Program-made: the position numbers and the translations under genes
The notes under the pieces: model-generated
What the model was told of the DNA's origin: nothing
Databases searched by the model: none
The model's input: only the letters and a program-made list of their open reading frames with translations
Assembly (NCBI GenBank): GCA_963695225.1
Contig: OY968762.1
Location: 284,501 to 348,500, forward strand
Reading direction: 5' to 3'
DNA length: 64,000 nucleotides
From: Vulcanimicrobiota bacterium
GTDB lineage: Bacteria; Vulcanimicrobiota; Vulcanimicrobiia; Vulcanimicrobiales; Vulcanimicrobiaceae
Shown: positions 25,905-59,038 of the stretch, in pieces
Layout: each line of letters starts with the position of its first letter
Numbering within the stretch: the stretch's first letter is position 1

Positions 25905-26098
25905 GTCGCTTGGGGTTTCGGCAGACGGAGCGGGGGTCCGCCTTGGGGGCTGCGTAGAGCTGCTGTGTGCCCTAGCGGATGCCGTCGCCGCCGTGTACCG
26001 GGTGGAAGTGCTCGACTATGCGCTCCCCTTCCCGGAAGTTGCGCGGAGAGCTACGTCTGCAGCGGGGAGCGGCTGCATCAGAGCCCAAGTACCGCTGC

Positions 26099-32483: not shown

Positions 32484-32499
32484 GAAATGGTCTTCCCAT

Positions 32500-35544: not shown

Positions 35545-35547
35545 TTC

Positions 35548-41695: not shown

Positions 41696-43574
41696 CTAGT
41701 CCGCGTTGCACTTCAGAGGAATGTCCAGCCGAAGCTGCCGGCATCCGGCGGAGATTAGCGCATGGTAGGTAGCGTCGAGATCGGCTAGCGGCGGGACGAA
41801 GATCATCATCCCGTCGCGCCCACGCGTCATGAGGACGCGGTAGCTATTGAGCCTTAGCTGTCGAGCGTCGTGGGCCTTGCTCCGAACGACGGATGTGGCC
41901 CATTCTCTGCCGTTCCACACGAGGTCGGTATCCCAGCCAACGATTGGGAAATCGAGCTCGAGGCCTTGGCACGAGAACTCCGTCGCGACTTCGAGCATCT
42001 GGCAGCACGATTTCAGCGACGACGCGGGTTCGTTATACCAGGGACCGGGACGGAAGCCGCGAGTCGCTTGGAACGATGTGTTCATTCCGAAGAGCGGGAG
42101 ATGCTTCGCCTTCGATGAGCCGAGAAGCCCGAAGCGCCTTTCTTCCTCGCCCTCGTAACGAGCGCGAACGTAGCGCTTCGCTTCCTCAAGATCGCGTGTG
42201 ACATAGAGATCGAATGACGCGCGCTGCATCGAATCGGCGATGGACGCCGCCTCCGAGAGCTGCCCGTCGAGAACATGCTTCACCCAGTCGTGAAGGCCGC
42301 CGGCGGCATGCGATCGCAGCGTCACCTTGAGCTCGAGCGCATCGTCGACGACGACCTTCTGACCACCAAACACGGAAGCCACGTGCTGGGGGCAATGGAT
42401 CGTCCAATCGCCGCCGCTTGCCTTTATGGCGTCGCTCCAGAGCCGAAGGCCGCCCTCCTCGCCCAAGTGGATCTCCTGGCCCTCGCCGATCAGGCCGACG
42501 AGCATCGCCCAATCCGGCGTCCTCATGCCCAGCTTCACGAAGTCCTCGGGCTCCGAGAGTGGGTGCCCCCGTTTGCCCATCACGCGCTCGCTATCCCAGG
42601 CGCGCTGTGCCTCATCGTAGACCCAGATGTGTTCGGTCGGCAGCTTCTTTGAGGCGCCGCCGTAGCGAACGAGAAAACCATGCACGTCTTGAACGAAGAT
42701 CCGATTCTTGAGGGCGTGTTGGAGGACGTCGACCAGCGGGCCGTTGCCGGAGAGAAACACTGCCGGGCCGTTCCGCTTCGTCGTCCGAGAAGCGCGTCAA
42801 GTACACGAACTGAAGGCCAACGAGCGTCTTCCCGGCGCCGGGTACGCCGGTGACGAGCGCGAGGTGACGCTCCCCGTTCCTCTGCGCTTGGCCGGCGATG
42901 CGCTGAAGCGACTCCAGTGCCTCTGGGATTCCGGCACTCGACGCCCGGCGGATCTGCGGCAGTGCCTCATGTTCAAATATCCGGCGAGCAGCGGCGACCA
43001 ATGCCGGCAGAGGCTCGTAGTCGGCTTCGACCCATTGCGAAATGCTTGCCCGCGCGAGTTCGTGATTGTCCGGCACGGACTGAAGATACGAGGCGAGGGT
43101 CTTGCCTCCAAGGATGGTGACGTTATCGACATCCTGTGCGGGCAGGGACGCATCGTCGAGGGCCAGGATCGGCCGGACGTCGAGCTCGTGCGATCCGGCA
43201 TGATATTCGCGGAGATCGCGCGCATACGCGTCGACTTGATCGACGTCGCTCTGCTCGGCGTACTGCCGCCCTTTGAACTCGATCACATGCGCCGCCGGCC
43301 CCGTCAGGAGGACAACGTCCGGCCGCCGCCCGCGTTCCCGTGGTAGTTCGTACTCGAAAACGAGCCCCCAGTGCCGCACGCCCGGCCGTTGTTCGACGAG
43401 CTCATGGCATTCGCGCTTGAGGACCCTGATAGAATCGGCCCACGCCCGGATCTGCCCATCGCCGAGCGGCAGATTGAGATCGTGAATCAGCGCCGAGAAG
43501 TCCTTTTGCAAAGTAGCCGGCGTCTCTGCCAGGAACTCATCGATCGTACCGTACCAGCCGCAACCGTTATTGAT
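41696..43574 (-). pseudogene. DUF2075-family ATPase/helicase-like protein, interrupted by a 1-nt frameshift
   Basis: Track ORFs 42612..43511 (VTGVPGAGKT... FVYLTRFSDDEAERP) and 41696..42760 (FLSGNGPLVDVLQ...) are two halves of one DUF2075-type protein. The frames join at the run gccgggcc (42762-42769). Confidence 0.7.
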
Positions 43575-43613: not shown

Positions 43614-46334
43614 CTACCGCGCCGCAAGCTCAGCACCGCTTACGGGGATCATCGGCGCGTTCGCGCCCGCATAGTCCTCCGGCCGGCACGTGAAGATGAC
43701 GATCTGAGCCTGTTCCGCTAGCTCGCGAAGGACCAGGAGCAGCCGCCTGCGGCGCACTTCGTCCGCATGGACGAGCGGGTCGTCGAGGAGCACCGGCATT
43801 CGGCCGAGGCGGTCCGGCGCCGTTAGCAGCGATGCGTAGCCGAGGCGGACCAAGAGCCCGAGCTGGTCGATCGCCCCGAACGAAAGCTCCGTCACGTCGA
43901 TCGGGTGGTGCACGCCGTCGACCTGCAACTGCTCCATCGCGTGATGCTCGCTGATCTGTAGCCCTTCAAGCCTGCGGCCAAAGATGCGCTCGTACCAGGG
44001 ACCGACGCGCGCCAGTACGGGCGCCGCGTAAGCTGCGACGCGCTGATCGTCCGCCGTTTTCACGAGTACGTAGAGCCGCTTGAGGGCCCGTTCCTCCTTC
44101 TGCGCTCGCTCGAGATCACGCCGCACGCGTTCGCGCTGCTCCTCGTACTCGCTCAATTCCGCGCCCGGCGCAGCGTTGCGCTTTGCTTCGAGGCTCGCCC
44201 GGAGCCGCGCGCATTCGCCTTCGGCCTCCCGCGCGAGCTTCGCGAGCGTCTCGGCCTGCGCTTCGACCTCTTCGAGCGCGGCCGCCGGATCGGCGAGTTC
44301 GGCATACGGCGCATAGGCGGCGACTGCCGCCTCCAGCGCTAGCGTCGCAGTCTGATCCTTCTGGTAGGCATCGCTCAACTGAGCGGCGCGCTGCTCGTCG
44401 CTCTCGTTTGCGAGCAGCCGCTTGAGCGTTTCTCGCAGCGGCGTGAGCTTCTGCTCCCGCAGTTGGGCGTATGCCGCCTTGTCATCGTCCGATCGCTTGC
44501 GAGCCACCGATAGCACAAGTGCGCTTCGCTCGAACTCTGCGCGCGCGGCCTCGCGTTTTGCTTCGTTTGCCTGCTCCCTCTCGGAGATCCGCACGCTCAG
44601 CGCGTCGCGGTCGTCATCCGCTCCCGCCTCCGCGAGCAGCGCGTCGATCGTCGTAATCCGAGAGGCGATCGCGCGGGGGTCCGCTCCGCTGAGCCGGTCC
44701 GATCGGGCAGCCTTCAGCTCCTCGATCTCTCGTCTCAACACCGCAGCGCGCTCACGGGCGACGCGCAGTTCGCTGGTGTCGGCAGTCCCGGCGGCCGCCT
44801 CGATCGCGGCGATCCGCTGGTTCGCTTTCGAGAGTTGACTCTGCGCAGCGGCGAGGTCTGCCACGGGCCCGCGGACCTCGATCGCGCCGACGCCCTCGAT
44901 CTCGAGGCGGATCGGGCCGTCTCCGATAAAGCGGGCGGGCTCGCCGGCCGGCGCCGTCTCCTCCCGTTCGATCCCGGCCGCCGTCCAGCGAATCGGAAAC
45001 GCTCGCTCGGGCGTGAAGGTGACGCTCGTGCGCGCCGCCTCCAGTTGCGCTGTGAGGTCCCGGCTGCGTTTGATGAGGCCTTCGAGTTCAGAAATCGTCG
45101 CGTCGTCGATCTCGGGCAGCGCGCCGAGTTCCTCGGCCTTGCTCGCGATGTTCCCGTCGTAAGCCGCGACGTCGAGTTGCTGCCGCGCGAGCTTCTCGCG
45201 CTCCCCGCGCAGCCGTTCGGCGCGATTCGCCTCTTCGAGCCGGCGGCGCCACGCGGCAAGCTCGGTATCTTCGGAGGTCGCCTCGTTCAGCGTGAGCTGC
45301 GCGGCGTCGTGCGCGGCTGTGGCTTCGCGCAATGCCGCTTCGCTCTCGGCCAGCGCCGCCGCGAGTTTGCGTTCGTTGCCTTCCTCCGCGGCGAGCAGCT
45401 CCTGCGTCTCGCCGATTGCGCGCTTGCGCTCGACCGCCTCCGCGTACGCCTTTGCAGCCGCATTGTGTGCCGCCCGCGCGCTGTCGAGCGCGCCTTTCAG
45501 CTTAACGGCGTCCCTGAAGCGCGGACGTTCTGCCTGCACGCGCGCCTGCGCCTCAGCCGCCGCCGCGCTGCGCGCGTCGCTCGAGTCCTCGGCATCGCGC
45601 AGGGCGACCGCAAGCGCTTCCAGCTCGCTGACGCCCGCGGCGCGGCATCTGATCTCCTCATCCAGCTGCCTGAGTTCCTCGGCTAGCGCTGGGCTCGGCG
45701 CGGTTTTCCGCGGTTGGCCGTCGCCTTTGAAGGTCGCGTCATACGCCTTCTTGATCCGCTGCGCGATCTGCGCTTCGCGTTCCGTCTGTCCGGCGGCGCC
45801 GATCGCCTGGCTCAGGCGCGCTTGCGCGCTAGAGTTCAGTGCGAGGTCTTTCTCGTCTCCGAGAATCGGGATCCGCCCCTGCGGCGCGAATAGCAACTGC
45901 GCGAGCCCCAAGTGCCGCCCCTGGAAGCCGCTGAAGGCGCCTTTCCCGGGCGGATCGCCCTCGAAGATCTTGGTGACGAAATCGTCCGCGTCGGCGCCCA
46001 TGAAGGGCGTCGCTTTCCCGGCGGTGTCGAGCGTCGAGAGCTGCGTGCCGCCGCGCGGTCCCCACCATTTTTCGAGGCGGTACTCGACGCCGCCGTGCGC
46101 GAAATCGACGATGACCGTCGGCGCAAGGCCGCTCGTATCCCACGGGGCGAGCGTCTCGATATCCGCGCCGCCCGCGCCCGAGCGGCGGAAGAACGCGTAC
46201 TGCAGCGCCTGGAAGAGCGTCGATTTGCCGGCCTCGTTCGGGCCGTGCACGATCGTCATCCGCTCGTCCAGCGTGAACTCGACGGGGCGGTTGTGGCGGC
46301 GGAAGTGCTTCAGTTCGACGCGTCGCAGAATCAT
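43614..46334 (-). CDS. SbcC/Rad50-like SMC-type ATPase
   Basis: MILRRVELKHFRRH...GPNEAGKST Walker A, a ~600-aa Ala/Glu/Arg-rich coiled coil, and C-terminal LSFGAIDQLGLL signature-like and VLLDDPLVHAD Walker B/D-loop motifs. ATGA overlap with the sbcD-like gene. Confidence 0.8.
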   Translation of the reverse strand: MILRRVELKHFRRHNRPVEFTLDERMTIVHGPNEAGKSTLFQALQYAFFRRSGAGGADIETLAPWDTSGLAPTVIVDFAHGGVEYRLEKWWGPRGGTQLSTLDTAGKATPFMGADADDFVTKIFEGDPPGKGAFSGFQGRHLGLAQLLFAPQGRIPILGDEKDLALNSSAQARLSQAIGAAGQTEREAQIAQRIKKAYDATFKGDGQPRKTAPSPALAEELRQLDEEIRCRAAGVSELEALAVALRDAEDSSDARSAAAAEAQARVQAERPRFRDAVKLKGALDSARAAHNAAAKAYAEAVERKRAIGETQELLAAEEGNERKLAAALAESEAALREATAAHDAAQLTLNEATSEDTELAAWRRRLEEANRAERLRGEREKLARQQLDVAAYDGNIASKAEELGALPEIDDATISELEGLIKRSRDLTAQLEAARTSVTFTPERAFPIRWTAAGIEREETAPAGEPARFIGDGPIRLEIEGVGAIEVRGPVADLAAAQSQLSKANQRIAAIEAAAGTADTSELRVARERAAVLRREIEELKAARSDRLSGADPRAIASRITTIDALLAEAGADDDRDALSVRISEREQANEAKREAARAEFERSALVLSVARKRSDDDKAAYAQLREQKLTPLRETLKRLLANESDEQRAAQLSDAYQKDQTATLALEAAVAAYAPYAELADPAAALEEVEAQAETLAKLAREAEGECARLRASLEAKRNAAPGAELSEYEEQRERVRRDLERAQKEERALKRLYVLVKTADDQRVAAYAAPVLARVGPWYERIFGRRLEGLQISEHHAMEQLQVDGVHHPIDVTELSFGAIDQLGLLVRLGYASLLTAPDRLGRMPVLLDDPLVHADEVRRRRLLLVLRELAEQAQIVIFTCRPEDYAGANAPMIPVSGAELAAR

Positions 46335-47536
46335 CGCGCGAACTCCGCGAGCAGCTCGAGGGCGCGCCCGGCCGTGGCCGTGTCCTCGTTGCGATCGATC
46401 TGGTCGAGCAGGTGCGCGGCGATGCCTTGGAACTCGCCGGGTGGGAAGGCCGCCAGCCACGCTTCGCGCGTCTGCGGCCGCGCCTCGATCGCGCGTTCGA
46501 AGGCGATGAAGAAGAAGCGCGCGCCAAGTTCGGCTTCGAGGGCGGCGAGCCGCTCTGCGGCGGCCGGCGTGCACAAGCCTCGGACGTGGATGCGCGCGAG
46601 CGTCCGCTCCGGCGCTTCGAGCGCGCGCAGGTCGCCCGCGAGGCGATCGACCGAGGCTTCATCCGAGATCTCGTGCGTGCGTTCGATCCAGCGGAGCTCC
46701 CCGACCGGGATGCGCTCGATCGACGGCCGCGCGCCGCGTGCGGCGATCGTCACGATCGAGACCGTTCCGCAATCGCGATCGGCGAAGCTGGACTGTTCCG
46801 GCGTCCCGCAGTAGGCGATCTGCGCGGCGCCGTCGTCGTAGCTCTGGGCGCTGTGCCAGTGGCCGAGCGCGAGGTAATCGAGGCGCCCGCGGGAGGCCGC
46901 GTCCAGGGGAATCGGAAACGAGCCGCGCTGCTCGCCTTCCGATGTCTCGATCGTGCCGGGGATCTGCAGCTCGCCGTGCGCGAGGCCGACGCGGATCGCT
47001 TCCGGCGCCGTGTCGTGGCCGGCATACCATGCGGTCGGGTCCTCGGTGCTGTACTTCTTCAGGCAGGGAGATGCGAGCAGGACGCCGCCGCCGGGGAGGT
47101 CGTAGGCGCGCGGCTCGTGGATCGTCACGACGTTCGCTCCGTCCAGCGTCTGCCAGGCCGCGCCGGCGTACGGTCCGTCGAGCCCGCCCGGATCGTGATT
47201 GCCGGGGAGGATGTAGACCGGCATCTTCGCGCGCCGCAGCGCGCCCGCTACTTGCCCGATCTCGGCGGCGTGCGGCGTGCGCTCTTCGAACTGATCCCCG
47301 GCGACGAGGATGAAGTCGACCTGCTGCTGGTTGGCGATGTCGATGATCCGCTCGACGGTCCTCCGCCGCGCCTCGCGCACGGCGCCGGCCTTGTCGCCGG
47401 CTTGCAAGCACTTCATCCCGATTTGCCAGTCCGCGGTATGCAAGAACTTCAGGGGTGATCCTCCGTTGCCGACGCATGCACTGTTCCCGGGCTCTATATC
47501 GTGGCCGCGGGCGTGCCGTGCATCACCGTACGCCAC
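46331..47536 (-). CDS. SbcD/Mre11-like metallophosphoesterase
   Basis: HTADWQIG, GDQFE, GNHD and GHWH calcineurin-like phosphoesterase motifs. The functional start may be the CTG at 47452, with GGAGGA 6 nt upstream, rather than the ATG at 47536. Confidence 0.8.
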   Translation of the reverse strand: MAYGDARHARGHDIEPGNSACVGNGGSPLKFLHTADWQIGMKCLQAGDKAGAVREARRRTVERIIDIANQQQVDFILVAGDQFEERTPHAAEIGQVAGALRRAKMPVYILPGNHDPGGLDGPYAGAAWQTLDGANVVTIHEPRAYDLPGGGVLLASPCLKKYSTEDPTAWYAGHDTAPEAIRVGLAHGELQIPGTIETSEGEQRGSFPIPLDAASRGRLDYLALGHWHSAQSYDDGAAQIAYCGTPEQSSFADRDCGTVSIVTIAARGARPSIERIPVGELRWIERTHEISDEASVDRLAGDLRALEAPERTLARIHVRGLCTPAAAERLAALEAELGARFFFIAFERAIEARPQTREAWLAAFPPGEFQGIAAHLLDQIDRNEDTATAGRALELLAEFAR

Positions 47537-47646
47537 GCGCGCGTCGCACGGTTGACGTACGCATACGATACGTTATCGGCGGCAGCGTACGCCGTGTCGA
47601 GGACTTAGGCGAGACAAAATTTTGTGCGCGATGTAGTGCGTAGTGT
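46838..47646. repeat. direct repeat copy A (~0.8 kb: sbcD 5' two-thirds plus upstream region)
   Basis: Near-identical to 56828..57636 by direct reading at an offset of ~9990 bp. Homology starts at ...tagc(t/a)ctgggcgctgtgccagtgg and fades after tgtagtgcgtagtg. Confidence 0.9.
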
Positions 47647-47936
47647 AAGTGAACTTGCGGTCCACGCTGTCGGCCCTTCGCGAAGTCTACCGGGCCGTCG
47701 CGGCCATCACAAAGCTAGGAGCAGTCTAGCGCTCAAGCCATTTCCGGGTGTTGCTAAAGGACCCCAACCCGAGCGCCGATGCAAGAGCGCAGATGCAGGT
47801 ACGCCGATGAGATCCACGCGAGCGCGCGGTCGCCATCATGGGTTCCCTGGCCCGCAAGACGTTGTCTCTTCTCGCGCTTCGTATCTCCGTGTCTCCAGTC
47901 TACTAAAGCCAAACTCCTCCCGATAACGAGCACTTT

Positions 47937-49202
47937 ATGAAACCAGGACTGCGATTCGCCGACGCGCTGAGATGGGCGTGTTTCAGCGCGCTTGTCGCCA
48001 TGCTCGCGACCCTTGGCGCTGCCGTCGATGTTTCTGCGGAGGACTCTCTTGAGGCGGCCTATTCAGCGATCCAACCCTCCCTTGTACTAATTGGCTCCTT
48101 TAAGGGAAGGACCTTACTCGACACTGGATCTGGCTTCGTTGTTGGTAATCGCAACGGCCACGCGTTGATCATAACAAATCGCCATGTCGTTGCCAGCGGC
48201 GACAACTACGTCGCCATTCGCCAATACCCAACGACAATCTCCGCTACGCTTCACCTCGTGAGAGTGGGCACAGCTGACGATGTCGCGCTACTAGAAGCGA
48301 GCAGCGGTTCGATACCGCCGGTCTCCTTCCTGAACGGCTTGCCAACGCTCGGTCATCGCATCGCCGTCGCAGGTTATCCGCGCACGCAGTTAACCTTTGC
48401 GCAACTCGGCTTGGGGTTGACGCCGTCTATCCATGCCGGCACGGTGAACGCCTTACCGGCTAATGGGTATTACGTTCAATATGATGCTCAGACTGAGCCT
48501 GGAAACAGCGGCGGTCCTCTTTTCGATGCTAATACCGGTGCCGTCTTCGGAATTGTCGTTGCAAAGGTAAAGGGGGCAAACGAGAGCAATATCGCGATCG
48601 CGTTCCCGAGGCTTGCGAAGTTCCTCAGCAACGCAGGTGTTGGGCTCCGAACACGGCCGGACTCAGATGCAACTGCAGCAGTCCCGTCGCCGACGCCGAT
48701 TCCGACGCCGGTACCGACTCCAGCGATCGACGTGAGCGCATGCCGGTCCGCACTCTCTGATTTCTATACGGCAAGTACGGCGCTGAACGATGCCTTTAAT
48801 CGCTACATTAGAGCACAGCAGAGCGCAAGCTCATCGGCTCAGGTGGCAACCACTCGCGTCGCGATGAGTGTGGCGCAGATCGCAGCTGCCTACGAGCTTC
48901 GGGCGATCCGATCTGTGATCGACGCCGAAGAGCCAAAGTTCATCGGGCCGGAATCGTCGATCGAACAAAGCGGAGCACTCGAGACAGCGCGCTTGACGAG
49001 TCGCATAATTAACCACATACATATGCGCGATGGATACGCCCTAAACTGGTCTCAAGCACGATACAGTCTATTTGGGAACATTGCGAATGGCGGCTCCGGT
49101 TTCCAGCTCGATCAAACACCGCTAAACGAAAGCAATTTTCTGACAGGACAGATCGACAGCGACTTTTCCGAACTACGGCTAGCTCGGCCCTGTCAGCAGT
49201 AG
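47937..49202 (+). CDS. secreted trypsin-like (S1-type) serine protease with C-terminal domain of unknown function
   Basis: Hydrophobic N-terminus. Candidate catalytic residues in ITNRHVV, DVALLE and GNSGGPLFD. A Pro/Thr linker (PSPTPIPTPVPTP) precedes a ~170-aa C-terminal region. Confidence 0.75.
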   Translation: MKPGLRFADALRWACFSALVAMLATLGAAVDVSAEDSLEAAYSAIQPSLVLIGSFKGRTLLDTGSGFVVGNRNGHALIITNRHVVASGDNYVAIRQYPTTISATLHLVRVGTADDVALLEASSGSIPPVSFLNGLPTLGHRIAVAGYPRTQLTFAQLGLGLTPSIHAGTVNALPANGYYVQYDAQTEPGNSGGPLFDANTGAVFGIVVAKVKGANESNIAIAFPRLAKFLSNAGVGLRTRPDSDATAAVPSPTPIPTPVPTPAIDVSACRSALSDFYTASTALNDAFNRYIRAQQSASSSAQVATTRVAMSVAQIAAAYELRAIRSVIDAEEPKFIGPESSIEQSGALETARLTSRIINHIHMRDGYALNWSQARYSLFGNIANGGSGFQLDQTPLNESNFLTGQIDSDFSELRLARPCQQ

Positions 49203-49603
49203 GTGTCAACGGCAGCGACTGAAGACGGCACGTTGCTTTAGTGTTTCGCAATGGACAATGCGTAACGACTTCGTGCTCGTGGAGGGCACCCCGATTCTTA
49301 CGCCAGCGGGACCACAATTTCGAGCCGCCTAAACGGCTCGTTCTACGGAGGTCCCCATGGCCCGCAAACGACACTCCCCCGAGTCGATCGCGAAGGTCCT
49401 ACGTCAAGCCGAGTCCGGCGTTCCGATCGGCGAACTCGCGCGCAAGACCGGAGTCCACGAGAACACGGTCCATCCTCGGCGGGCAGCTAAAATCGCACAC
49501 CTGGGGGCACTTCAAAACCGCACACTACCCGGTGGGCAGTTCAAAATCGCACACCTGATGTAGCCTCGGGCACGCCAAGGGTGGCAGCGCGAACAGCGTT
49601 GCC

Positions 49604-51172
49604 ATGAACGTACTGGACGTGGCCGATCGAGACCGTATTCTGAACCTGCTGCGCAAGCGCTGGAGCATCCGGCACGTCGCGCGCGAAACCGGACACCGGC
49701 ACGAAACGATCCGCCGTTACGGGGTCGAGGCCGGCATCCTGGCGCCAAGGCCGGCAAAAGGTACCACCCCGGCCGAAGTGGCCGCCGACCCAAAACCGCA
49801 CACCGAGCCCGAAGTGCCCACCGGGTCGGCTCCAAAACCGCACACCGAGCCCGAAGTGCCCACCGGGTCGACGCGCAGCAGCGCCGAGCCGTTTCGGGAG
49901 TTCATCGAGGCAGAATTGCGCAAGGGCCGCAACGCCAAGGCGATCTTCCAAGACCTGGTCCTGCATCGCGGTCACACCGGCTCCTACGACGCGGTGAAGC
50001 GGCTGGCTCGCACGTTGCGAAAGCGCGAACCGAAGATCAGTTGCCGCTTCGAAACCGACCCTGGTCAAGAAGCCCAGGTCGATTACGGCGAAGGCGCGCC
50101 TGCGCGCGATCCGCGCACCGGCAAGTATCGCAAACCGCGCCTGTTTGTGATGACGCTTGGCAACAGCCGCCACGCGTTTCGCAAAGTCGTCTGGACCTCG
50201 TCGACGGAGATCTGGTGCCGGCTGCACGAGGAAGCATTCGCGTACTTCGGCGGCGCGACGCACACGATTCGCCTCGACAATCTCAAAGAGGGCGTTCTTA
50301 AGCCCGACGTTTGGGACCCGCAGCTCAATCCGCTCTACGCCAAGCTGCTCGAACATTACGGCGTTGTTCCGCTACCCTGTCGGCCGCACGCTCCCGATCT
50401 CAAGGGCAAAGTTGAATCGGCGGTCGGCTATACGCAAGGCACGGCCCTGAAGGGAAAGCGCTTTGAGAGCATCGAGGACGAGAACGCGCATCTGTTCCAG
50501 TGGAACGAGAACTGCGCGGCAACGCGAATCCACGGCACGACCAAGCGGCAAGTGCGGGCGATGTTCGAAGAGGAGCGGTCGCATCTCTTGCCGCTGCCGG
50601 CCAGGCGCTTTGAGTACTACCGCATCTGCGAGCGGACGGTGCACTTTGACGGCTACATCGAAGTCGACGCTGCCTACTACTCGGCGCCGCCGCGCTACGT
50701 TGGTAGCAAGGTGGTCGTGCACGTCGGCAGGCTGTGGCTGCGCATCGTTGATCGCACGACGCACGAATGCCTGCGCGAGCACACGATCGCGCTGCAGAAA
50801 GGCCAGCGCCGGACGCACGAGGCCGATCGCCCGCGGCAGACGCCGATCAGGGTCGAGAAACTGGCCGCTCGGATCGCCGGAGCGGGGCCCGGCTGCGCGG
50901 CCTTTGCGCAAAAGCTGATCGACACTCGCGGCGCGATCGCTCTGCGCGCGCTCTATGGGATGCTGGACCTGCTGCGCCGCTACGGAGCCGACGACGTCGA
51001 CCAGGCATGTGCGTTTGCGGCACGATCGGGGATCTCGAGCTTTCGGTTCGTTCGAACATATCTCCAGCACCACGCAACGCCGCTGAAACTCAAAGGTGAG
51101 CATCACATCATTCCGGAGATCGCGATCTACACAACGCACTTCGCCACCGTTACGCAAGGAGCAACCCCATGA
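49604..51172 (+). CDS. istA: IS21-family transposase IstA
   Basis: 522 aa with an N-terminal HTH and a DDE integrase core (QVDYGE..., typical IstA layout). Overlaps istB by 4 nt. Confidence 0.9.
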   Translation: MNVLDVADRDRILNLLRKRWSIRHVARETGHRHETIRRYGVEAGILAPRPAKGTTPAEVAADPKPHTEPEVPTGSAPKPHTEPEVPTGSTRSSAEPFREFIEAELRKGRNAKAIFQDLVLHRGHTGSYDAVKRLARTLRKREPKISCRFETDPGQEAQVDYGEGAPARDPRTGKYRKPRLFVMTLGNSRHAFRKVVWTSSTEIWCRLHEEAFAYFGGATHTIRLDNLKEGVLKPDVWDPQLNPLYAKLLEHYGVVPLPCRPHAPDLKGKVESAVGYTQGTALKGKRFESIEDENAHLFQWNENCAATRIHGTTKRQVRAMFEEERSHLLPLPARRFEYYRICERTVHFDGYIEVDAAYYSAPPRYVGSKVVVHVGRLWLRIVDRTTHECLREHTIALQKGQRRTHEADRPRQTPIRVEKLAARIAGAGPGCAAFAQKLIDTRGAIALRALYGMLDLLRRYGADDVDQACAFAARSGISSFRFVRTYLQHHATPLKLKGEHHIIPEIAIYTTHFATVTQGATP

Positions 51173-51933
51173 CCAACGACGAACTCGACCGCGCTCTGCG
51201 GCAACTGCGCATGAGCGGCATGGCCGACGCCGTTCCGATCCGAACGCAGCAGGCCCGTGCTGAGAACCTCGGCCCGCTCGATTTCATCAGCTTACTCGTG
51301 CACGATGAGCTGCAGCGGCGGCGGGATCGACTCATCGAGCGCCGCGTCAAGGCCGCCGGCTTTCGCGACCAGAGAACGCTCGACACGTTCGACTGGAAAT
51401 TCAACACGCTCGATCGCGCGCTCATCTTCGAACTGGCCAACGGGCGCTTTATCGAACAACACGAGGACGTTCTGTTACTCGGCAACGCCGGCGTTGGGAA
51501 AAGCCATATCGCGCAGGCGATCGGCATGGCCGCTATTCATGCTGGTTTCCGCGTATTGTACCGCGAGGCGCACGCGCTCTTCGAAGACTTCCTTCTCGCT
51601 GGCGCGACCGGCGAGCGCGGCACCGCGATCGCGACCTTTAGCGAGATACCCTTGCTCATCATCGACGACTTGGGGATGCGCAAACTCCCCGCCAACGCAG
51701 CCGAGGATTTGCTCGAAATCGTCATGCGACGCTACGAGCGAGCATCGACGATTCTGACCTCGAACCGACCGCTCGACGATTGGCCTAAGCTCTTCGGCGA
51801 CACGCCCGCCGTTGCGGCCTTTCTCGACCGGCTAATGCATCATTCGCATCTGATCGAGATTCGCGGCAAGAGTTATCGGCTCCACGAGCACAGCATCGCG
51901 GCCCGCCACCGGAAGGCAAAGGCGAGCGCGTAG
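51169..51933 (+). CDS. istB: IS21-family helper ATPase IstB
   Basis: GNAGVGKSH Walker A and LLIIDDLG Walker B; DnaC-like AAA+. Confidence 0.9.
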   Translation: MTNDELDRALRQLRMSGMADAVPIRTQQARAENLGPLDFISLLVHDELQRRRDRLIERRVKAAGFRDQRTLDTFDWKFNTLDRALIFELANGRFIEQHEDVLLLGNAGVGKSHIAQAIGMAAIHAGFRVLYREAHALFEDFLLAGATGERGTAIATFSEIPLLIIDDLGMRKLPANAAEDLLEIVMRRYERASTILTSNRPLDDWPKLFGDTPAVAAFLDRLMHHSHLIEIRGKSYRLHEHSIAARHRKAKASA

Positions 51934-52227
51934 CCAACGATTGCGACAAACATCACTCAGCCCGAGGCGTGCGGTTTTCAACTGCCCACGGGTGTGCGGT
52001 TTTGAGCTGCCCCCTGAGGCGGTCCATCTCTGGAAGAAGAAATACGGGACGCTCGGCACGCCCGAGCGTCGCGAGATGAACGAGCTGCGTGACGAGAACA
52101 CGCGACTCAAGCGTCTGGTAGCCGATCTCACCCTCGACAAGCTGATGCTCCAGGATGTGCTCTCAAGGAAGCTCTGAAGCCGGCCAAGCAGCGCGTCCTA
52201 GCCGGCGAACTCCAAGCAGAGTACGGC

Positions 52228-53043
52228 GTGAGCCAACGGCACGTCTGCGAAGCGCTGCGGTTCAATCGGAAATCAATCCAGTACAAGCCGAAGACCAGCG
52301 CCGTCAAAGAAGTGCTGCGCGGCCGCATCAAAGAGCTAGCGCAGGCGCGCGTGCGATATGGGTATCGACGGATCCACGTGTTGCTTCGCCGCGAGGGTTG
52401 GAAGGTCAATCCAAAGCGCATTGCTCGGCTATACCGCCAAGAAGGCCTGAGTTTGCGGGCAAAGGGTCCGAAGCGACGTAGCCGGTCCGCGGTTCAGCGC
52501 GTTCGAATTGCCGCGACGCAGGCGAACCATGTGTGGAGCATGGACTTCATGCATGATGGGCTGATGGGTGAAGATCGTAAGACGTTCCGCCTGCTGACGA
52601 TCGTCGACATTTTCACGCGCGAATGCCTTGCGCCCGAAGTCGCGAAGGGCTTCAGCGCTCGAGATGTCGTCGGTGTTCTAACACGGCTTGTCAGCCGGCG
52701 AGGGGCGCCGATCGCCATCCGCTGCGATCAAGGCACGGAGTTCACGGCGGAAGCGCTCGACCAACGGGCGTACAATAACCGCATCGAGCTCGACTTCTCA
52801 CGTCCTGGAAAGCCAACCGACAACGCCTTCGCCGAGGCGTTCAACGCGAGTGTCCGCAAAGAGTTGCTCAACACGTCCTGGTTTGATACGTTAGAAACGG
52901 CCCGTCGAGCGGCGCGGTCGTGGCGACGAGAATACAACGAGGTTCGCCCACACCGGTCGCTGGCCAACGAAACGCCGCAAGCCTTTGCCCTATCGGAAAA
53001 GCGGCGAAATGAACCCCAAGAGCCACAAAGCCCGTTGGCGTAA
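52228..53043 (+). CDS. IS3-family transposase OrfB (DDE/rve domain)
   Basis: HVWSMDFMHD...TIVDIFTRE...CDQGTEFT...RPHRSL integrase-core pattern. The frame is open upstream to ~52163 and is -1 relative to the orfA end, consistent with OrfAB frameshift fusion. Confidence 0.85.
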   Translation: MSQRHVCEALRFNRKSIQYKPKTSAVKEVLRGRIKELAQARVRYGYRRIHVLLRREGWKVNPKRIARLYRQEGLSLRAKGPKRRSRSAVQRVRIAATQANHVWSMDFMHDGLMGEDRKTFRLLTIVDIFTRECLAPEVAKGFSARDVVGVLTRLVSRRGAPIAIRCDQGTEFTAEALDQRAYNNRIELDFSRPGKPTDNAFAEAFNASVRKELLNTSWFDTLETARRAARSWRREYNEVRPHRSLANETPQAFALSEKRRNEPQEPQSPLA

Positions 53044-53070
53044 CGAATGGGGCACCTCCACATATGCGAT

Positions 53071-55575
53071 CTATCCCTGCAGTTGCTGTCTTTTTGCGTC
53101 TAAGAACTCAAGCGTACTTTCAAACTCCAACCACTGCGCTGCATGTTCCAGCTCGCGAATCCCATGCCTACCGCAAATATACTTCGTACACGCAACTAGA
53201 TGCGCATAGACCCCCATGTTCTCCGCTTCAGCCTGCATTTGCGACAGTAAGCAATCCAAGAGGCGCTCCTCGCCACGCCTCCAGTGAACTAGGGCTACAG
53301 CCTGTAATGCGAAGAGCCGGCCAGCTCTATATCCAGCCCTATCCTGGACTTGCAACGCTCGGGCCGCTGTAGCAAGAGCATCGGAAATACGGTCCAGCAT
53401 CAACTCGGAAATCGCCATGGCCGCCAATGCTTTGCCTGCCTCAATAGGTGCGCCTACAGCTTCATTAGCTTGAACAGCAGATAGCGCCAAATCAAGTGCT
53501 TCCTGCGGCGCACGCCAACAGAGTGTTTCGACTCTATTGGTAAGCGCCTTCGCGATCATCGCCTCACAACTCGCAGCCTCCGCCGTATCAAGAGCGCTGC
53601 CATAGCATCCTAAGGCCGCCTCGTGAAGATGATTAAAGCGCCGATTATGACCTTTGAAGCGCCAGCACTCCGCAACCCAAATAGAGTCATCGCGCCGTTC
53701 TCGCAGTGCTTCATCGAAGATAGCATCCGCCTCCCGAAACCTGCCGCGGATCATCTCGATGTCGCCTAGCTGCCTGCGCGCTGCACAACGATTGCTAGCC
53801 CCAAGTGCGCCGTTGGCGGCGATATTCGCGATGTCCACATAGACCGCAGCTGCAGCGCCGTAATTCCCGAGAAGATGCGCGGTATGAGCGCTAAGGTATC
53901 TGTAAAGCGGCCGCCAATCCTGTAGACGATCTTCAAATTCGGCGAGCCTCGCGTAAGACCGCGACGCTTCCTCGAGCCGGCCCTCCTTGCGAAAGCAGTA
54001 TGCTTGTAACAATAGCAGTCGCAAATCGATTTTTGAGGGGCCGACGGCGACCGAACCGCTGAACCTGCCCGCCAGATAGCTTTCAAGGACGCCGGCGACC
54101 CATATCCATCGGCCCGCCTCGATGCCGTCGAGAAGCGTTTCGACCACTGGTTCCCAGCGCGCCCTTTGATCGTCTGCGGCATGGAGTGGAAATCGCCGTA
54201 GAAGGCTCATGTAGGCCTCGGTAAGCCACATTTGTCTCTGAGCGTCGTTACCATGTTCCCGGGATTCCATCAGCTGCTCTTGGAGCGAGCGAACGACGCC
54301 GGCTAGAATAACAGACATCGGCCTAGCTGCCAGATGCATGGCAAACGTACTCTGCATTGCGTACAAGCCGAGTTGTGCGTCAACGACATCGCTATATGAT
54401 ATCGCACAGAATTCATCAAAAAGAGATAACGGCACAGGAAGATTCAAATTACGAACAATTGCCGCGAACAGCTCGCTGTCGAACTTGACTACGAGCGCTA
54501 TTGCGCGAGCAGCGTGACGCATTCCTTGGTCCAGATGACTCAAGAAACGGTCGATCACATCGCCCTGATGCAGAGCAAAGTCCGCGGCCTTGACCGCGCT
54601 TCCATTAGCCTTCTCGATCAAATAAGTTGAGGCACATAAGTCAAGATAGAGCGGTACCCCGGCAGATACGCTAATGATGGCATCTCGAATGTCCGGTTCG
54701 AGCACTGGAATGCCCGTGAGGTACTGTTCCGCATCGGCGCGTGCCAAGGCGCCCAACAGGTGCTGCTCGAGTACTTCGTCCCATTCCGGGTTCCATTCGC
54801 TCCAGCGGATAAATTCACGTGAGCCGATTACGAATAGGGAGCGTTCGGATGCCCCAATGAGCTCTTGTACCCAGGCATCGAGCCGTTGCTTCGTGCTGTT
54901 GAATTGTTGCCTCTTGTGAAGGGCCTCAAATGAGTCTAGAAAGAGAACGGCGTGCGCATCGGTTAGGAGCAAACCGCGTGCGATGTCATCGGCAAGATAA
55001 AACGGAACCTTCATTACTAGATCCTCTTCAGAGAGCAAGTCTATGGTCTCAAACTCTTCTCTTAGCGAGGTGAGATGTTGTCGGACAAACGCATTTGCGC
55101 GCCCAGCAAGTTTGCGGAATAGTTTGAAGACGGGAATCACGCCTACGGCCTCAGCAGCAACGTCGATGGCGTCTAAGAGAAGGCTGTTCTCGCCGAGAAG
55201 TGACTTGTTCAGGTTTCGAAGCTCCTCTCCAGATAGCTGAAGCGCGCGCGCAACAGCGTACTCGAAGCGGTAGCACGGAATGCCTAACTGACGGCGAATC
55301 TCCAGAAGTAGGTCGATAGGGCTCCTGAGGAGCGGATTCTCGCAGTCCACGGACGCAAGACGGACGCCATGACGAGGGATGTTCTCTTTTAGCTCGTGTA
55401 TTAGCGCTGACTTGCCGATGCCACCAGCGCCGTAAAACGTTAGCACTCTAAGGGAAGCCGTGCCATGTGTTATGGAAGCGAACAGGCGATTGAATGCTGC
55501 TTGCGCAGTCTCTCTGTCGGTAAACCGTTTGGTTGCCGGGTCCTTTAGAAGGCCTTTATACTTGCTTAACGTCAT
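53071..55575 (-). CDS. STAND NTPase (NB-ARC-like) with C-terminal TPR-like repeats
   Basis: FYGAGGIGKSAL Walker A ~40 aa from the N-terminus, VLFLDSFE Walker B, and SAGVPLYLDL (equivalent to the NB-ARC GxP/GLPL motif). A ~400-aa helical-repeat C-terminus follows. There is no N-terminal effector domain. Confidence 0.75.
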   Translation of the reverse strand: MTLSKYKGLLKDPATKRFTDRETAQAAFNRLFASITHGTASLRVLTFYGAGGIGKSALIHELKENIPRHGVRLASVDCENPLLRSPIDLLLEIRRQLGIPCYRFEYAVARALQLSGEELRNLNKSLLGENSLLLDAIDVAAEAVGVIPVFKLFRKLAGRANAFVRQHLTSLREEFETIDLLSEEDLVMKVPFYLADDIARGLLLTDAHAVLFLDSFEALHKRQQFNSTKQRLDAWVQELIGASERSLFVIGSREFIRWSEWNPEWDEVLEQHLLGALARADAEQYLTGIPVLEPDIRDAIISVSAGVPLYLDLCASTYLIEKANGSAVKAADFALHQGDVIDRFLSHLDQGMRHAARAIALVVKFDSELFAAIVRNLNLPVPLSLFDEFCAISYSDVVDAQLGLYAMQSTFAMHLAARPMSVILAGVVRSLQEQLMESREHGNDAQRQMWLTEAYMSLLRRFPLHAADDQRARWEPVVETLLDGIEAGRWIWVAGVLESYLAGRFSGSVAVGPSKIDLRLLLLQAYCFRKEGRLEEASRSYARLAEFEDRLQDWRPLYRYLSAHTAHLLGNYGAAAAVYVDIANIAANGALGASNRCAARRQLGDIEMIRGRFREADAIFDEALRERRDDSIWVAECWRFKGHNRRFNHLHEAALGCYGSALDTAEAASCEAMIAKALTNRVETLCWRAPQEALDLALSAVQANEAVGAPIEAGKALAAMAISELMLDRISDALATAARALQVQDRAGYRAGRLFALQAVALVHWRRGEERLLDCLLSQMQAEAENMGVYAHLVACTKYICGRHGIRELEHAAQWLEFESTLEFLDAKRQQLQG

Positions 55576-56558
55576 CGCGATGGCCGATCGTTCACTTTAG
55601 CGCATTGGGTGGCTGAGGCGTCTAGCAGTAGTCGGTGTCGAGGAATAGCCGAGTCGAGATTGGTGGCTTTGGATGAGTAATGTGAATGCAAGTCGCTGAA
55701 CAGTCCGCGGTATCGGGTTACTGCGGGAGGAAGGCCAGCGTTAAGCGGATGTTTCTCTGTTAAGCCGTCGCGCCACGTAAGAGTGATAGATTCCTGAGAA
55801 TGATCTAAGGTGACGTCGCAGTGTTCGTAGTAAAGCGTCGTTGTCTTAGAATTGACATTTAGGGTCCAACTCGTGTCGATGTGAACGATAAACCCTTCTG
55901 AAGGAGTCTTTCCGCTCAGAAGAGCGTTACCCGCGATTTGCGTACATGGTAATTCGCGCAGGCTGATCATCGTTGATGAGAGCATTACGAGAGTCGCATC
56001 GGCAAGAATCTCGTCAAGGACGGTTAATGCATTAATTCCGCTATCTAGCCAAGATCCACTCAGACTCTTCCCTGCGGCGAGGGCGTCACCGTTCGCGATA
56101 TACGGATCGTAGAAGCGACAACTCACTGCTTTCAGAGAACCCAGGGTTGACTTCAGGTGCCTGCAGATCTGCTTCCATCGGAGGATTTCGACGCCAAAGG
56201 CGAAGTGAAACATCGCATAGATCGTGGCCGATTCATGAGCGGAGAGGCGCTCGAGTTCGGCAAGGTCGGCCGCATTAGAGACGAGCGGCTTCTCAACCGC
56301 TGTGCGGCGGCCGGCAGAAAGTGCCGTCTTAAGATGCTGGAAGTGCGTGTCCGTTGGCGATGAGATGACGATCACATCGGCCGGTGAAGAGTCGATCAAA
56401 TGCTGAGCTGTACGATGCCTCGTGATAGACTGCGGGAGGGCTTGCATTCGGGCGACTTCTGGGTCGTAAGCATCGGTGATTTGGATCTGGGGCAAGAGTG
56501 ATAGTGCACGCAGATAATACTCCGTAACCTTGCCTACGCCAAGCAACGCAATATTCAT
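55572..56558 (-). CDS. Gfo/Idh/MocA-family NAD(P)-dependent oxidoreductase
   Basis: N-terminal Rossmann loop MNIALLGVGKV and the family-typical EKPL motif, in 328 aa. The stop overlaps the STAND start by 4 nt. Confidence 0.7.
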   Translation of the reverse strand: MNIALLGVGKVTEYYLRALSLLPQIQITDAYDPEVARMQALPQSITRHRTAQHLIDSSPADVIVISSPTDTHFQHLKTALSAGRRTAVEKPLVSNAADLAELERLSAHESATIYAMFHFAFGVEILRWKQICRHLKSTLGSLKAVSCRFYDPYIANGDALAAGKSLSGSWLDSGINALTVLDEILADATLVMLSSTMISLRELPCTQIAGNALLSGKTPSEGFIVHIDTSWTLNVNSKTTTLYYEHCDVTLDHSQESITLTWRDGLTEKHPLNAGLPPAVTRYRGLFSDLHSHYSSKATNLDSAIPRHRLLLDASATQCAKVNDRPSR

Positions 56559-56826
56559 GATTCTCGTCGACCGGAGCCTTTCGAGTTCGACCGTGATTCG
56601 TGGTTGAGGACGCTAAGGGAGCAGCACGCTGGTCGAGTGCGAGTAAGCGGCGCTTCGCGGCGGGGGCATTCGGTTCCGGCCAGCCAATGCGAGGGCGAGC
56701 TTGTTGGGTTCAACCGAACATAGCCGAAGGTGGCAGTCGGGCCGTGAGCGCAGGCGATCAGGTCGTAGGGGCCAACGAGGTGCATGAGCTCAAGCGCCGG
56801 TTGTCGAGTCGCAACGACTAACGATT

Positions 56827-57525
56827 CTAGCACTGGGCGCTGTGCCAGTGGCCGAGCGCGAGGTAATCGAGGCGCCCGCGGGAGGCCGCGTCTAGGGGGA
56901 TCGGAAATGAGCCGCGCTGCTCGCCTTCCGATGTCTCGATCGTGCCGGAGATCTGCAGTTCGCCGTGCGCGAGGCCGACGCGGATCGCTCCCGGCGGCGT
57001 GTCGTGGCCCGCGTACCATGCGGTCGGGTCCTCGGTGCTGTACTTCTTCAGGCAGGGAGACGCGAGCAGGACGCCGCCGCCGGGGAGGTCGTAGGCGCGC
57101 GGCTCGCGGATCGTCACGACGTTCGCTCCGTCCAGCGTCTGCCAGGCCGCGCCGGCGTACGGGCCGTCGAGCCCGCCCGGATCGTGATTGCCGGGGAGGA
57201 TGTAGACCGGCATCTTCGCGCGCCGCAGCGCGCCCGCGACCTGCCCGATCTCGGCGGCGCGCGGCGTGCGCTCTTCGAACTGATCCCCGGCGACGAGGAT
57301 GAAGTCCACCTGCTGCTGGTTGGCGACGTCGACGATCCGCTCGACGGTCCTCCGCCGCGCCTCGCGCACGGCGCCGGCCTTGTCGCCGGCCTGCAAGCAC
57401 TTCATCCCGATTTGCCAGTCCGCGGTATGCAAGAACCTCAGGGGTGATCCTCCGTTGCCGATGCATGCACTGTTCCCGGGCTCTATATCGGGGCCGGGGG
57501 CGTGTCGTGCATCACCGTACGCCAC
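56827..57525 (-). pseudogene. truncated second copy of the sbcD-like gene (first 232 codons)
   Basis: The translation differs from the 46331..47536 product at about a dozen of 232 positions. It stops (..HWHSAQC*) exactly where nucleotide homology to copy A ends. Confidence 0.85.
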
Positions 57526-57636
57526 GCACGCGTCGCACGGTTGACGTACGCATACCAGAGGTTATCGGCGGCAGCTTGTTCCGCATCGAGGAATTCTCGA
57601 AACGCCCGTTCTCGAGCGGTGTAGTGCGTAGTGCGA
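56828..57636. repeat. direct repeat copy B (~0.8 kb)
   Basis: See copy A (46838..47646). Confidence 0.9.
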
Positions 57637-57903
57637 AAGAGAGTCTGCAGCCTCAATCTGGCGCGCGCGAATGTAGCGGCCCCAAGAACCGTTACTGCCA
57701 AGAGCGGATGTCTCTGCCGGCGGCATAGACGGGGCTGCCTCTGGTGCACTTCTGGTACACTTTCGGGCGTCGGAGCCGCCTCCAGCGCATTCCGCCGGAT
57801 CGTCGCCCGATGATTGTCCCGGGCGGTCCGCCTGCCGAGCCAACTCAAGGGGCTGCTAGCCCAGGCACATGAGACCGCAACGGCTCTCGAAAGCGCTGGG
57901 CTA

Positions 57904-57939
57904 GAAAAACTTTGGCCTCTGCATTCGCAGAGGCCAAAG
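57904..57939 (-). terminator. Rho-independent terminator-like hairpin (minus strand)
   Basis: A perfect 13-bp stem, ctttggcctctgc / gcagaggccaaag, with a 4-nt loop (57910-57939). On the minus strand it is followed by TTTTTC. It lies ~110 nt downstream of the MazF-like gene. Confidence 0.6.
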
Positions 57940-58045
57940 TCCCGGCTCTCCCGGGGGAACGACGTGATTGTACCACATCTCGGGCAACTGTCGGCGCTCG
58001 CCTACTCGCTTTTCTTTGGCGGTTAGATGCAACTCGCGAGTCGCC

Positions 58046-58426
58046 CTAGACCGATCGCGTGCAGCAGGGCGCGCCTAAGTTCATCGAGTGCCTCGTGGAG
58101 AGGCTGACGGTCGGAATGTACTTGCCGCGCACTCGCACGCGGTCGAGGCGCTCGAAACGGACATGTGCTAGCAGGTCCGCTTTCGCCCAAGTGTCGACGG
58201 GGCCGAAACAAGCATAGCTACCCGGCGGAAAATGAACGTGGATTGGCTTGATCGGCCTGGGCGGCGCCGTACTGACAGGGACTACCAACGCTATCGGTGC
58301 CCCGGCATTTCGCGGTGAAACGACGACAACACGCCGCAGCTTTACCATTTCCGGCGCGACATAACCCGCGAAGTCGCACATCCAGACTTCACCGGGCGAT
58401 GGGATAATATTCGGTGGGAGCGACAT
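58046..58426 (-). CDS. PemK/MazF-like toxin-fold protein (no adjacent antitoxin recognised)
   Basis: PSPGEVWMCDF....PEMVKLRRVVVVSP matches the N-terminal SH3-like strand pattern of PemK/MazF-family proteins. Confidence 0.55.
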   Translation of the reverse strand: MSLPPNIIPSPGEVWMCDFAGYVAPEMVKLRRVVVVSPRNAGAPIALVVPVSTAPPRPIKPIHVHFPPGSYACFGPVDTWAKADLLAHVRFERLDRVRVRGKYIPTVSLSTRHSMNLGAPCCTRSV

Positions 58427-58560: not shown

Positions 58561-58791
58561 TCAGAGAAGGGCCCGCAATTCGTCGACGGTTAGGCCGGCG
58601 TCGTCTAGAATGGCGGCGGGCGTGCCGCGCTTGATCGTATCGCCACGGTGAACGTGGACCGTCGTGCGCCGGCCGTTTTCCGGATTCTCCGTGAAGTGTG
58701 CACTACCGCGAATGCGAATGACGACGAACCCTGCACGCTGGAGTGCGCGGACTAGCCTGCCGCCTTCGACGACTGGGAGCTTTTCGCTCAT
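58561..58791 (-). CDS. hicA: HicA-family mRNA interferase toxin
   Basis: 76 aa. LVRALQRAGFVVIRIRGSAHFTENPENGRRTTVHVH is the classic HicA dsRBD-like pattern with a catalytic His. Confidence 0.8.
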   Translation of the reverse strand: MSEKLPVVEGGRLVRALQRAGFVVIRIRGSAHFTENPENGRRTTVHVHRGDTIKRGTPAAILDDAGLTVDELRALL

Positions 58792-58798: not shown

Positions 58799-59038
58799 CT
58801 ACGCCGCGGGGGCGGGAAGTGTGACTGCCACGGCAGTCACGATATCTGACGGCGGAAGCGGCTCGCCGCGCTCGGTCATCACCTCAGCGTGAAGTTCGAT
58901 CACCTCGCGAGCATTTGCGAGGCATTCCTCGACCGTCTCCCCTTGCGTATGTGCGCCCCGGAACGCGGGGATGTGGACCGAAAACCCACCTTCGGCCTCG
59001 GGCTCCAGCACGACTGCGTACGACCGTTCCAACGCCAT
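58799..59038 (-). CDS. hicB: HicB-family antitoxin
   Basis: YAVVLEPEAEGGFSVHIPAFRGAHTQGETVEECLANAREVIELH is a typical HicB/UPF0150 N-terminal domain. It lies 7 nt upstream of hicA. Confidence 0.8.
   Translation of the reverse strand: MALERSYAVVLEPEAEGGFSVHIPAFRGAHTQGETVEECLANAREVIELHAEVMTERGEPLPPSDIVTAVAVTLPAPAA

Follow-up and report, generated by a model that had tools for sequence, protein, structure and literature searches.

Integration by a single crossover of the Campbell type, such as that of a suicide plasmid, leaves a direct repeat around the inserted DNA, with one truncated and one complete copy of the shared sequence, and is reversible. In transformable bacteria, homology-facilitated illegitimate recombination also introduces foreign DNA, one end of which is joined non-homologously, with little or no microhomology, while an anchor of homology lies elsewhere. 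Rapid gain, loss and replacement of cassettes are known from defence hotspots, including the core hotspots of Pseudomonas aeruginosa (PMC10250203) and the P2/P4 hotspots (PMC9122126). The locus described here lies in a stretch of 64,000 nucleotides, referred to as the window, of contig OY968762.1 of a Vulcanimicrobiota bacterium (assembly GCA_963695225.1), where two copies of the 5' part of an sbcD-like gene enclose a block of foreign cargo. Copy A belongs to an intact two-gene sbcD-like/sbcC-like module that is native to this Eremiobacterota lineage, and copy B is truncated. With a probability of roughly 60%, copy B is what remains, after a recent truncation, of a second allele of this module that was once complete, in a defence-island hotspot.

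A seeded repeat search followed by local alignment defines an ungapped direct repeat of 768 bp, between 46839-47606 and 56828-57595, of which 732 positions are identical (95.3%) at an offset of 9,989 bp. This is the only pair of dispersed long repeats in the window, so that a chance occurrence is excluded, and both of the genes that bear it are on the minus strand. A sequence-only reading of the same DNA had described the copies as near-identical over 809 bp; its gene-internal end is right to within 1 nt, while near-identity is true of only 768 of those bases. Past a 1-nt indel, a further 38 bp (47608-47645 and 57596-57633) align at only 66%, yet the motif CACTACGCACTAC is exact in both of these faded extensions and absent elsewhere in the window. 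The features of the repeat, with J1 denoting the junction at 56827/56828, are as follows.

46839-47606, minus strand: repeat copy A, comprising the leader and the first 232 codons of the intact sbcD-like gene (alignment to copy B)
56828-57595, minus strand: repeat copy B, the same leader and 5' gene part, truncated (alignment; Pfam Metallophos over residues 29-229; short-read contigs agree)
56827-57525, minus strand: truncated sbcD' open reading frame (ORF), 232 codons from a GTG and about 204 from the conserved start at 57441 (TAG over J1)
47607-47645, minus strand: faded upstream extension of copy A, with the boundary motif CACTACGCACTAC at 47633-47645 (66% block; motif common to the related locus L001)
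57596-57633, minus strand: faded upstream extension of copy B, with CACTACGCACTAC at 57621-57633 (66% block; motif common to L001)
56559-56827, minus strand: spacer of 269 bp from J1 to the oxidoreductase start, in which sequence inspection finds no recognisable gene remnant

The truncation of copy B is abrupt. Its TAG straddles J1, directly after the point at which homology breaks, which bears out the earlier claim that the copy is cut exactly where homology ends. Copy B reads CACAGCGCCCAG and then TGCTAGAATCG across this point, while copy A, in which the letters before the break are ..CCCAG, reads CACAGCGCCCAG and then AGCTACGAC. Microhomology at J1 amounts to 4 nt at most (GCTA), the final 60 bp ahead of it are identical in the two copies, and the break sits just 3' of the GHWH phosphoesterase motif. 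Copy A is the 5' part of an intact sbcD-like gene together with its upstream region, as had been supposed, except that the shared piece falls short of two-thirds of the gene: it accounts for 232 of the 401 codons (58%) of the longest ORF, or 204 of 373 (55%) from the start conserved in relatives. Over the 232 codons the copies differ at 12 residues, the 'about a dozen' of the earlier count, and copy B has neither internal stops nor indels relative to copy A in 698 bp. An identity of 95.3% also settles the doubt that alignment might reveal much lower similarity between the copies.

Independent evidence for this arrangement is available from public Logan short-read contigs, drawn from several samples and runs (L007, X1, X2, X3 and X4). 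Contig L007 (4,872 bp) matches 56862-51991 at 100% identity and spans J1, running from 35 nt within copy B through the oxidoreductase gene, the gene for the STAND-type NTPase and the right half of an IS3-family insertion sequence (IS) to the end of an IS21 element, and in a second sample, X3, the contig at 56601-56862 likewise crosses J1. In run X1, contigs at 57407-57831 and 47418-47872 cover, without a difference, the unique sequence upstream of copy B and copy A respectively, and another at 49039-49819 covers the join of protease gene, IS3 and IS21, again with 0 differences. The two halves of the IS3 are tied together by matching target duplications of the inserted IS21, CGGTCCATC, at 49466-49474 and 52020-52028. 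The protein P0124 is 100% identical to the SbcD-like protein of the window. Because independent short-read contigs cross every unique junction, a chimera is rejected and the duplication holds as genuine; a collapsed or chimeric assembly is very unlikely. No joint that skips 9,989 bp, as expected of a deletion product, is present in the Logan contigs, which are too short to resolve one over a repeat of 768 bp. In X4, a 'joint' of 10,887 bp is rejected as a deletion product, since one of its sides extends for just 30 nt and it is out of register with the repeat.

The nature of the differences between the copies is informative about their history. Between the conserved start and the break lie 203 codons, in which A and B are separated by 12 synonymous and 8 non-synonymous changes, giving a synonymous divergence (dS) of 0.083, a non-synonymous divergence (dN) of 0.018 and a ratio of the two (omega) of 0.21; the same ratio for A or B against intact orthologues is 0.17-0.25. 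The dN to L001 is 0.034 for B and 0.036 for A, so the outgroups are no more distant from B than from A. When polarised with three outgroups, 16 differences are A-derived and 12 are B-derived, and the coding changes amount to approximately 4 non-synonymous and 5 synonymous on each branch, where around 75% would be non-synonymous under neutrality (departure: P = 0.05 for the B branch alone and P = 0.002 for both branches pooled, 8/19). The leader has diverged by 9.7% over 154 nt and by 16% over its last 70 nt, against 3.3% in the coding part. Differences are spread evenly along the repeat, in which no run of identity exceeds 74 bp, and there is no gene-conversion tract between the copies; nor is there any shift of affinity to relatives, as would mark a mosaic breakpoint, in copy A at 46839. 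As omega is that seen between orthologues, the branches are balanced and the leader is more diverged than the coding sequence, A and B are diverged alleles that drew apart under purifying selection, while both were parts of functional genes. The truncation of copy B, or its arrival in truncated form, is then recent compared with the separation of A and B.

The module to which copy A belongs, and the gene that follows it, are arranged as below.

46331-47536, minus strand: intact sbcD-like metallophosphoesterase gene, an ORF of 401 codons (Pfam Metallophos; relatives have 370-380 amino acids)
43614-46334, minus strand: sbcC-like ABC/SMC-type ATPase, 906 amino acids, with an ATGA overlap with the sbcD stop (Walker A; long coiled coil)
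41696-43511, minus strand: Schlafen-group-3/DUF2075 helicase, the PADLOC candidate PDC-S41, with a 1-nt frameshift at 42765 (PADLOC)

The closest relatives of the SbcD-like protein, 89-92% identical, are found in metagenome-assembled genomes (MAGs) labelled Candidatus Eremiobacteraeota or Ca. Velthaea, the loci of which have 85-89% DNA identity to the A module. Two of these (L004 and L005) align across sbcD-sbcC-PDC-S41 (window 47554-41769), L006 across sbcD-sbcC only, and L001 across sbcD-sbcC plus fragments; the upstream flanks in the window, of either A or B, are common to none of the four. A five-way alignment of A, B, L001, L004 and L006 retains similarity out to approximately the CACTACGCACTACA motif, around 190 nt upstream of the TTG start, and beyond this 5' boundary of the module all five contexts are unrelated. 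As similarity ends at the same motif in all five, copy B holds the complete 5' boundary of a module. Among 80 more distant metagenome loci (33-44% identity), an sbcC-like gene directly follows the sbcD-like gene in 70, and the helicase does not follow, which identifies the sbcD-like/sbcC-like pair as the conserved unit.

A parallel structure is evident in L001, in which a direct repeat of 501 bp (1713-2211 and 13865-14363, 93% identity) brackets approximately 12 kb including sbcD-sbcC, accompanied by an extra piece of 145 bp (3152-3293 and 14362-14505). This repeat is the 5' region of the PDC-S41 gene, with one copy behind sbcC and the other behind a distant SMC-like gene (25-27% amino acid identity to SbcC-like), and both helicase copies are decayed by frameshifts or deletions. 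Given this parallel, repeats of partial modules around cargo are recurrent in this family of islands.

For this module 'SbcCD' is only a loose label at the level of the superfamily, since neither protein reaches the NCBIfam cut-offs and there is no CxxC hook in the ATPase. The SbcD-like protein has the phosphoesterase fold (Pfam Metallophos 47.9 bits against a cut-off of 21.5), its best matches in the PDB are SbcD/Mre11, and of the Mre11-type motifs it keeps GNHD and GHWH, with motif I being DWQ instead of DxH. The glutamine in place of histidine in motif I occurs in A, B and several relatives, while other relatives retain the histidine. It is not, by these models, a canonical SbcD (TIGR00619 58.2 against 77.65 bits; NF008206 49.7 against 450), and the NCBIfam SbcD models align only with its N-terminal 90 or so residues. 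The SbcC-like protein has a split ABC head, with Walker A GPNEAGKST at residue 31, then some 700 residues rich in A, E and R, and a C-terminus with LSFGAIDQ and VLLDDP; AAA_23 and SMC_N of Pfam match only its N-terminus. Its 906 amino acids contain just three cysteines (230, 708 and 883) and no CxxC zinc hook. With PADLOC v2 the SbcD-like protein has 0 matches, and the SbcC-like protein only those of a P-loop level (LmuB, PtuA and GajA; E 1e-4 to 1e-8; about 50 residues). The metallophosphatase defence systems DS-8 and DS-9 (PMC13092281) were considered and rejected, being SMPDL3A-like and unrelated to this pair.

The start codon conserved among these genes, at 47452, is CTG in the window and TTG in relatives; the CTG is common to copies A and B and is derived. 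Upstream of it, the leader (47453-47645 and 57442-57633) contains blocks conserved across the five loci, namely a tandem heptamer GCACTAC GCACTAC, GCCGCCGATAAC, CAACCGTGCGAC and TGGCGTACG. Rfam has no matches within 41-60 kb of the window, and a simple scan for promoters of sigma-70-like consensus was empty at both leaders. The conserved leader may be an unrecognised promoter or operator, or another form of leader.

The cargo between the copies has the content listed by the sequence-only reading, that is, the protease, the nested IS3/IS21 and the oxidoreductase-STAND operon.

47937-49202, plus strand: trypsin-like serine protease with a signal-peptide-like N-terminus (Pfam Trypsin_2; GC content at third codon positions, GC3, of 0.60)
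49278-53062, plus strand: IS3-family element, with orfB at 52228-53043 and ends uncertain by about 2 nt (Pfam rve/HTH_21; terminal inverted repeats)
49475-52019, plus strand: IS21-family element within the IS3, with istA at 49604-51172 and istB at 51169-51933 (Pfam; target duplication)
53071-55575, minus strand: STAND-type P-loop NTPase with TPR repeats (Pfam AAA_22/AAA_16/TPR_12/nSTAND6)
55572-56558, minus strand: GFO_IDH_MocA-family oxidoreductase, first gene of a conserved pair, overlapping the STAND gene by 4 bp (Pfam)

The GC content of this cargo is 52-60%, with a GC3 of about 0.57-0.68, compared with approximately 70% and 0.87 in the sbcD copies. The terminal inverted repeats of the IS3 lie at 49289-49310 and 53031-53052, and no convincing target-site duplication was identified for it in a target-duplication test. 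Contigs of X2 and X3 run from 49465 straight to 52020 with the IS21 missing, and one of X3 enters the IS3 at 49278 from a different left flank. In run X1 the word depth of the IS21 is around 17x, against 4-5x in its surroundings, hence it is multi-copy. As the IS21 is multi-copy, and other samples contain the IS3 lacking the IS21 and with a different left flank, both elements appear to be active in the population. The block of J1 and cargo is also present in X3, without the protease region and without the upstream sequences specific to A and B, absences that are weak evidence at the 2-4x coverage of that sample.

The nearest relatives of the STAND protein are only 36-39% identical and belong to other phyla. 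An oxidoreductase gene followed by a STAND gene, overlapping or adjacent, occurs in the same order in five further loci (L008-L012), in one case beside conjugation and integrase genes. The hosts of this pair include Wenzhouxiangella and an activated-carbon metagenome (L008, L011 and L012), where the STAND/TPR NTPase has about 830 amino acids. The recurrence of the same two-gene unit in distant taxa implies that the pair in the window is complete and starts at the oxidoreductase. PADLOC gives no match to the pair, which may be an undescribed defence-type module. No phosphoesterase partner for it was found in other genomes, which makes a functional SbcD'-oxidoreductase-STAND operon in the window unlikely.

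These observations can be accounted for by the loss of most of a second module, and the order of events that we infer is as follows. An illegitimate join at J1 would have fused codon 232 of the B allele to foreign DNA of lower GC content, carrying the complete oxidoreductase-STAND pair and the adjacent IS3, and the remainder of the B module would have been lost. With an intact A module, under its own leader, 10 kb away, the cargo would then be flanked by the two 5' ends as a direct repeat. The IS3 may have played a part in forming this structure. Copy B is probably now non-functional, for the truncation removes the last part of the phosphoesterase fold, along with the capping domain and the C-terminus that binds the ATPase. 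Two of the histories originally put forward, that of a remnant of a second sbcCD-like system and that of a cassette-exchange hotspot, are favoured by the data, namely the allelic divergence with its omega of 0.21, the full 5' boundary on B, the differing context of the module in each genome and the analogous partial duplication in L001. The proposal that RecA could loop out the whole block also stands on the geometry of the repeat, with 74 bp as the longest identical run: under every history considered here, homologous recombination between A and B could bring about a scarless deletion of the 9,989 bp, after which a single hybrid gene would stand intact under the B leader.

Several points weigh against the truncation of a resident second module. 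A complete B-type module at this site was found in no genome, so that the 'before' state is missing, and there is no trace of a B-type sbcC in the window. Searches for an empty site or a complete B module returned, from genome contigs, only L002, which represents the contig and region of L001 again, and a partial match of 55% identity; from a leader-motif scan of JGI metagenomes, no match; and from a protein-anchored metagenome scan, only relatives of 33-44% identity. The data do not separate truncation in situ from the arrival, on recombining DNA, of a pre-truncated copy, alleles on the two sides of the repeat cannot be phased with short-read contigs, and the lineage-specific selection test has no more than 9-10 substitutions to draw on for each branch. 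A defence role for the sbcDC-like pair is suggested by context only, namely the island and the variable locations of the module, as PADLOC gives no match beyond the P-loop.

The principal alternative is that a circle carrying the cargo and a 5' fragment of a related strain's sbcD, pre-truncated at J1, entered the resident sbcD by a single crossover of the Campbell type. This is the only form in which the first of the original histories, the insertion of cargo into one sbcD-like gene, survives, as a plain insertion duplicates no 768 bp and the copies are 4.7% different. The order of a truncated copy, the cargo and a full copy with its own leader is exactly that expected of such an integration, for which an identical run of 74 bp would suffice for RecA; the copies are alleles and not identical sequences, and B is undecayed, so the arrival could have been recent, and the occurrence of the J1-cargo block in X3, without the protease or either upstream sequence, suggests that the block moves between contexts. 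It nevertheless demands an extra step, as the truncation at J1 must already have taken place in a donor. Neither a circle nor an integration at another site was observed, and the affinity of copy A to its relatives is unchanged along its length at 46839. On balance this origin is unlikely, if less so than any of the other alternatives.

In a more doubtful extension, the leader and the conserved 5' part of the sbcD-like gene would serve as a portable handle of homology, by which defence cargo could be shuttled between strains without a recombinase. RecA-dependent recombination of B with A would excise a circle of the cargo with a single truncated hybrid copy, an intact operon would stay in place, and the circle would re-enter any related genome bearing the module by a single crossover. 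This fits the presence of J1 and cargo in a second sample without the flanks seen in the window, the analogous repeat in L001 and the undecayed state of B, but it has no direct support.

Quite improbable is a site-specific integrative element that inserted within sbcD at codon 232 and brought with it a surrogate 5' end to restore the gene, in the manner of islands that enter the ends of genes and duplicate them. The repeat does end sharply inside the gene and fade outside it, and the last 60 bp before J1 are the same in both copies, but this run is no longer than others in the repeat (up to 74 bp). There is no tyrosine or serine recombinase between the copies, where the only recombination enzymes are the DDE transposases of IS3 and IS21, and no core-like repeat, inverted or direct, was found at the ends of the repeat beyond the gene homology. 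A composite or IS-bounded transposon is similarly not indicated, as the IS3::IS21 is single and internal and no inverted repeat links J1 and ~47646. An origin through a transposon or integrase was rejected for want of terminal repeats, a recombinase and a target duplication.

There is just as slight a chance that a 0.8 kb fragment was duplicated locally, by unequal crossover or replication slippage, and diverged in place. In its favour, A and B are mutually closest (96.7% identical over the 203 shared codons, compared with approximately 91-93% to relatives) and have the derived CTG in common. A fragment born truncated should, however, evolve neutrally, yet omega is 0.21, the B branch is neither faster nor enriched for non-synonymous change, and 698 bp have accumulated no frameshifts or stops; nor would such a duplication explain the 9 kb of low-GC foreign cargo that separates the copies. 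A fresh duplication in situ is rejected by the omega of 0.21 together with the equal branch lengths.

Least probable of all is the false stitching in tandem, from a long-read metagenome, of two strain alleles of one sbcD locus, because despite the coexistence in the source sample of several related strains with other sbcD alleles, and at least one probable consensus indel in the window, J1, both upstream ends and the protease-IS3-IS21 and IS21-IS3-STAND joins are in contigs of 100% identity, and the two IS3 halves have matching IS21 target duplications.

The probable consensus indel just mentioned is in the helicase gene. The frameshift base at 42765 is one extra in a short run of T, absent from otherwise identical contigs of X2, and is probably a long-read consensus error in an intact gene for a helicase of 601 amino acids; the intact orthologue in L004 matches PDC-S41 with E = 4.8e-131. 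The wider region, at around 26-59 kb, is a defence island containing Hma, PDC-S41, and MazF-like and HicAB modules. The Hma system, at 28887-38871, is complete, with an HmaA SNF2 helicase, an HmaB DUF1156 methylase and an HmaC HEPN-DUF499 ATPase, and its PADLOC matches are very strong. A MazF/PemK-like toxin (58046-58426) lies in the right flank of copy B, followed by a HicA-like toxin (58561-58791) and a HicB-like antitoxin (58799-59038) that were recognised by eye from translations only. Between the MazF-like gene and copy B, at 57900-57994 on the minus strand, a promoter-like CCGACA-16-TGgTACAAT precedes two hairpins (CCCGG..CCGGG and GGCCTCTGC..GCAGAGGCC) and a run of T, and could represent a small RNA or the terminator region of mazF. 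At the left edge of the lower-GC island (25979-28416), a protein of 285 amino acids without a family match is followed by an ORC/CDC6-like AAA ATPase of 526 amino acids, and the two genes may be another two-gene defence candidate. Further away, at 15928-17199, approximately ten tandem repeats of 108 nt (36 amino acids), 67-76% identical, are found within an ORF of 747 amino acids (14999-17242).

The locus is an ordinary scar of gene-cassette turnover in a defence island, new in kind neither in structure nor in mechanism, and in form and function it can be grouped with the turnover of defence hotspots and with insertion duplications. It does provide a clean case of the remodelling of such an island, at the level of a single junction, in an uncultured soil phylum (Eremiobacterota), in which a homologous stump left by an illegitimate join would make the cargo deletable with the surviving operon unharmed. 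It also draws attention to two uncharacterised candidate modules: the hook-less SbcD/SbcC-like pair, widespread in metagenomes, and the oxidoreductase-STAND pair, which is found across phyla.

Of these, the first resembles SbcCD/Mre11-Rad50 (the families of PDB 6S6V, 4LTY and 2Q8U) in combining a phosphoesterase with a large coiled-coil ABC ATPase in overlapping genes, and differs from them in its scores below cut-off, the lack of a CxxC hook, the DWQ of motif I, its defence-island context and its variable locations. In comparison with the integration of a suicide plasmid, no circular form and no replication or transfer function was seen here, and the copies of the repeat are 4.7% diverged. 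Homology-facilitated illegitimate recombination is resembled in the non-homologous join at J1, with GCTA at most shared, an anchor of homology elsewhere being presumed. Set against the hotspots of P. aeruginosa and P2/P4 (PMC10250203; PMC9122126), the flanking homology in the window is the 5' part of a module gene, not conserved core or phage genes; the host is an uncultured Eremiobacterota MAG, and no mobilising element was identified. What the window has in common with defence hotspots is variable cargo of a defence type between conserved sequences, cassettes of foreign GC content, IS elements and decayed remnants of genes, and the occurrence of the same module in a different context in each genome.

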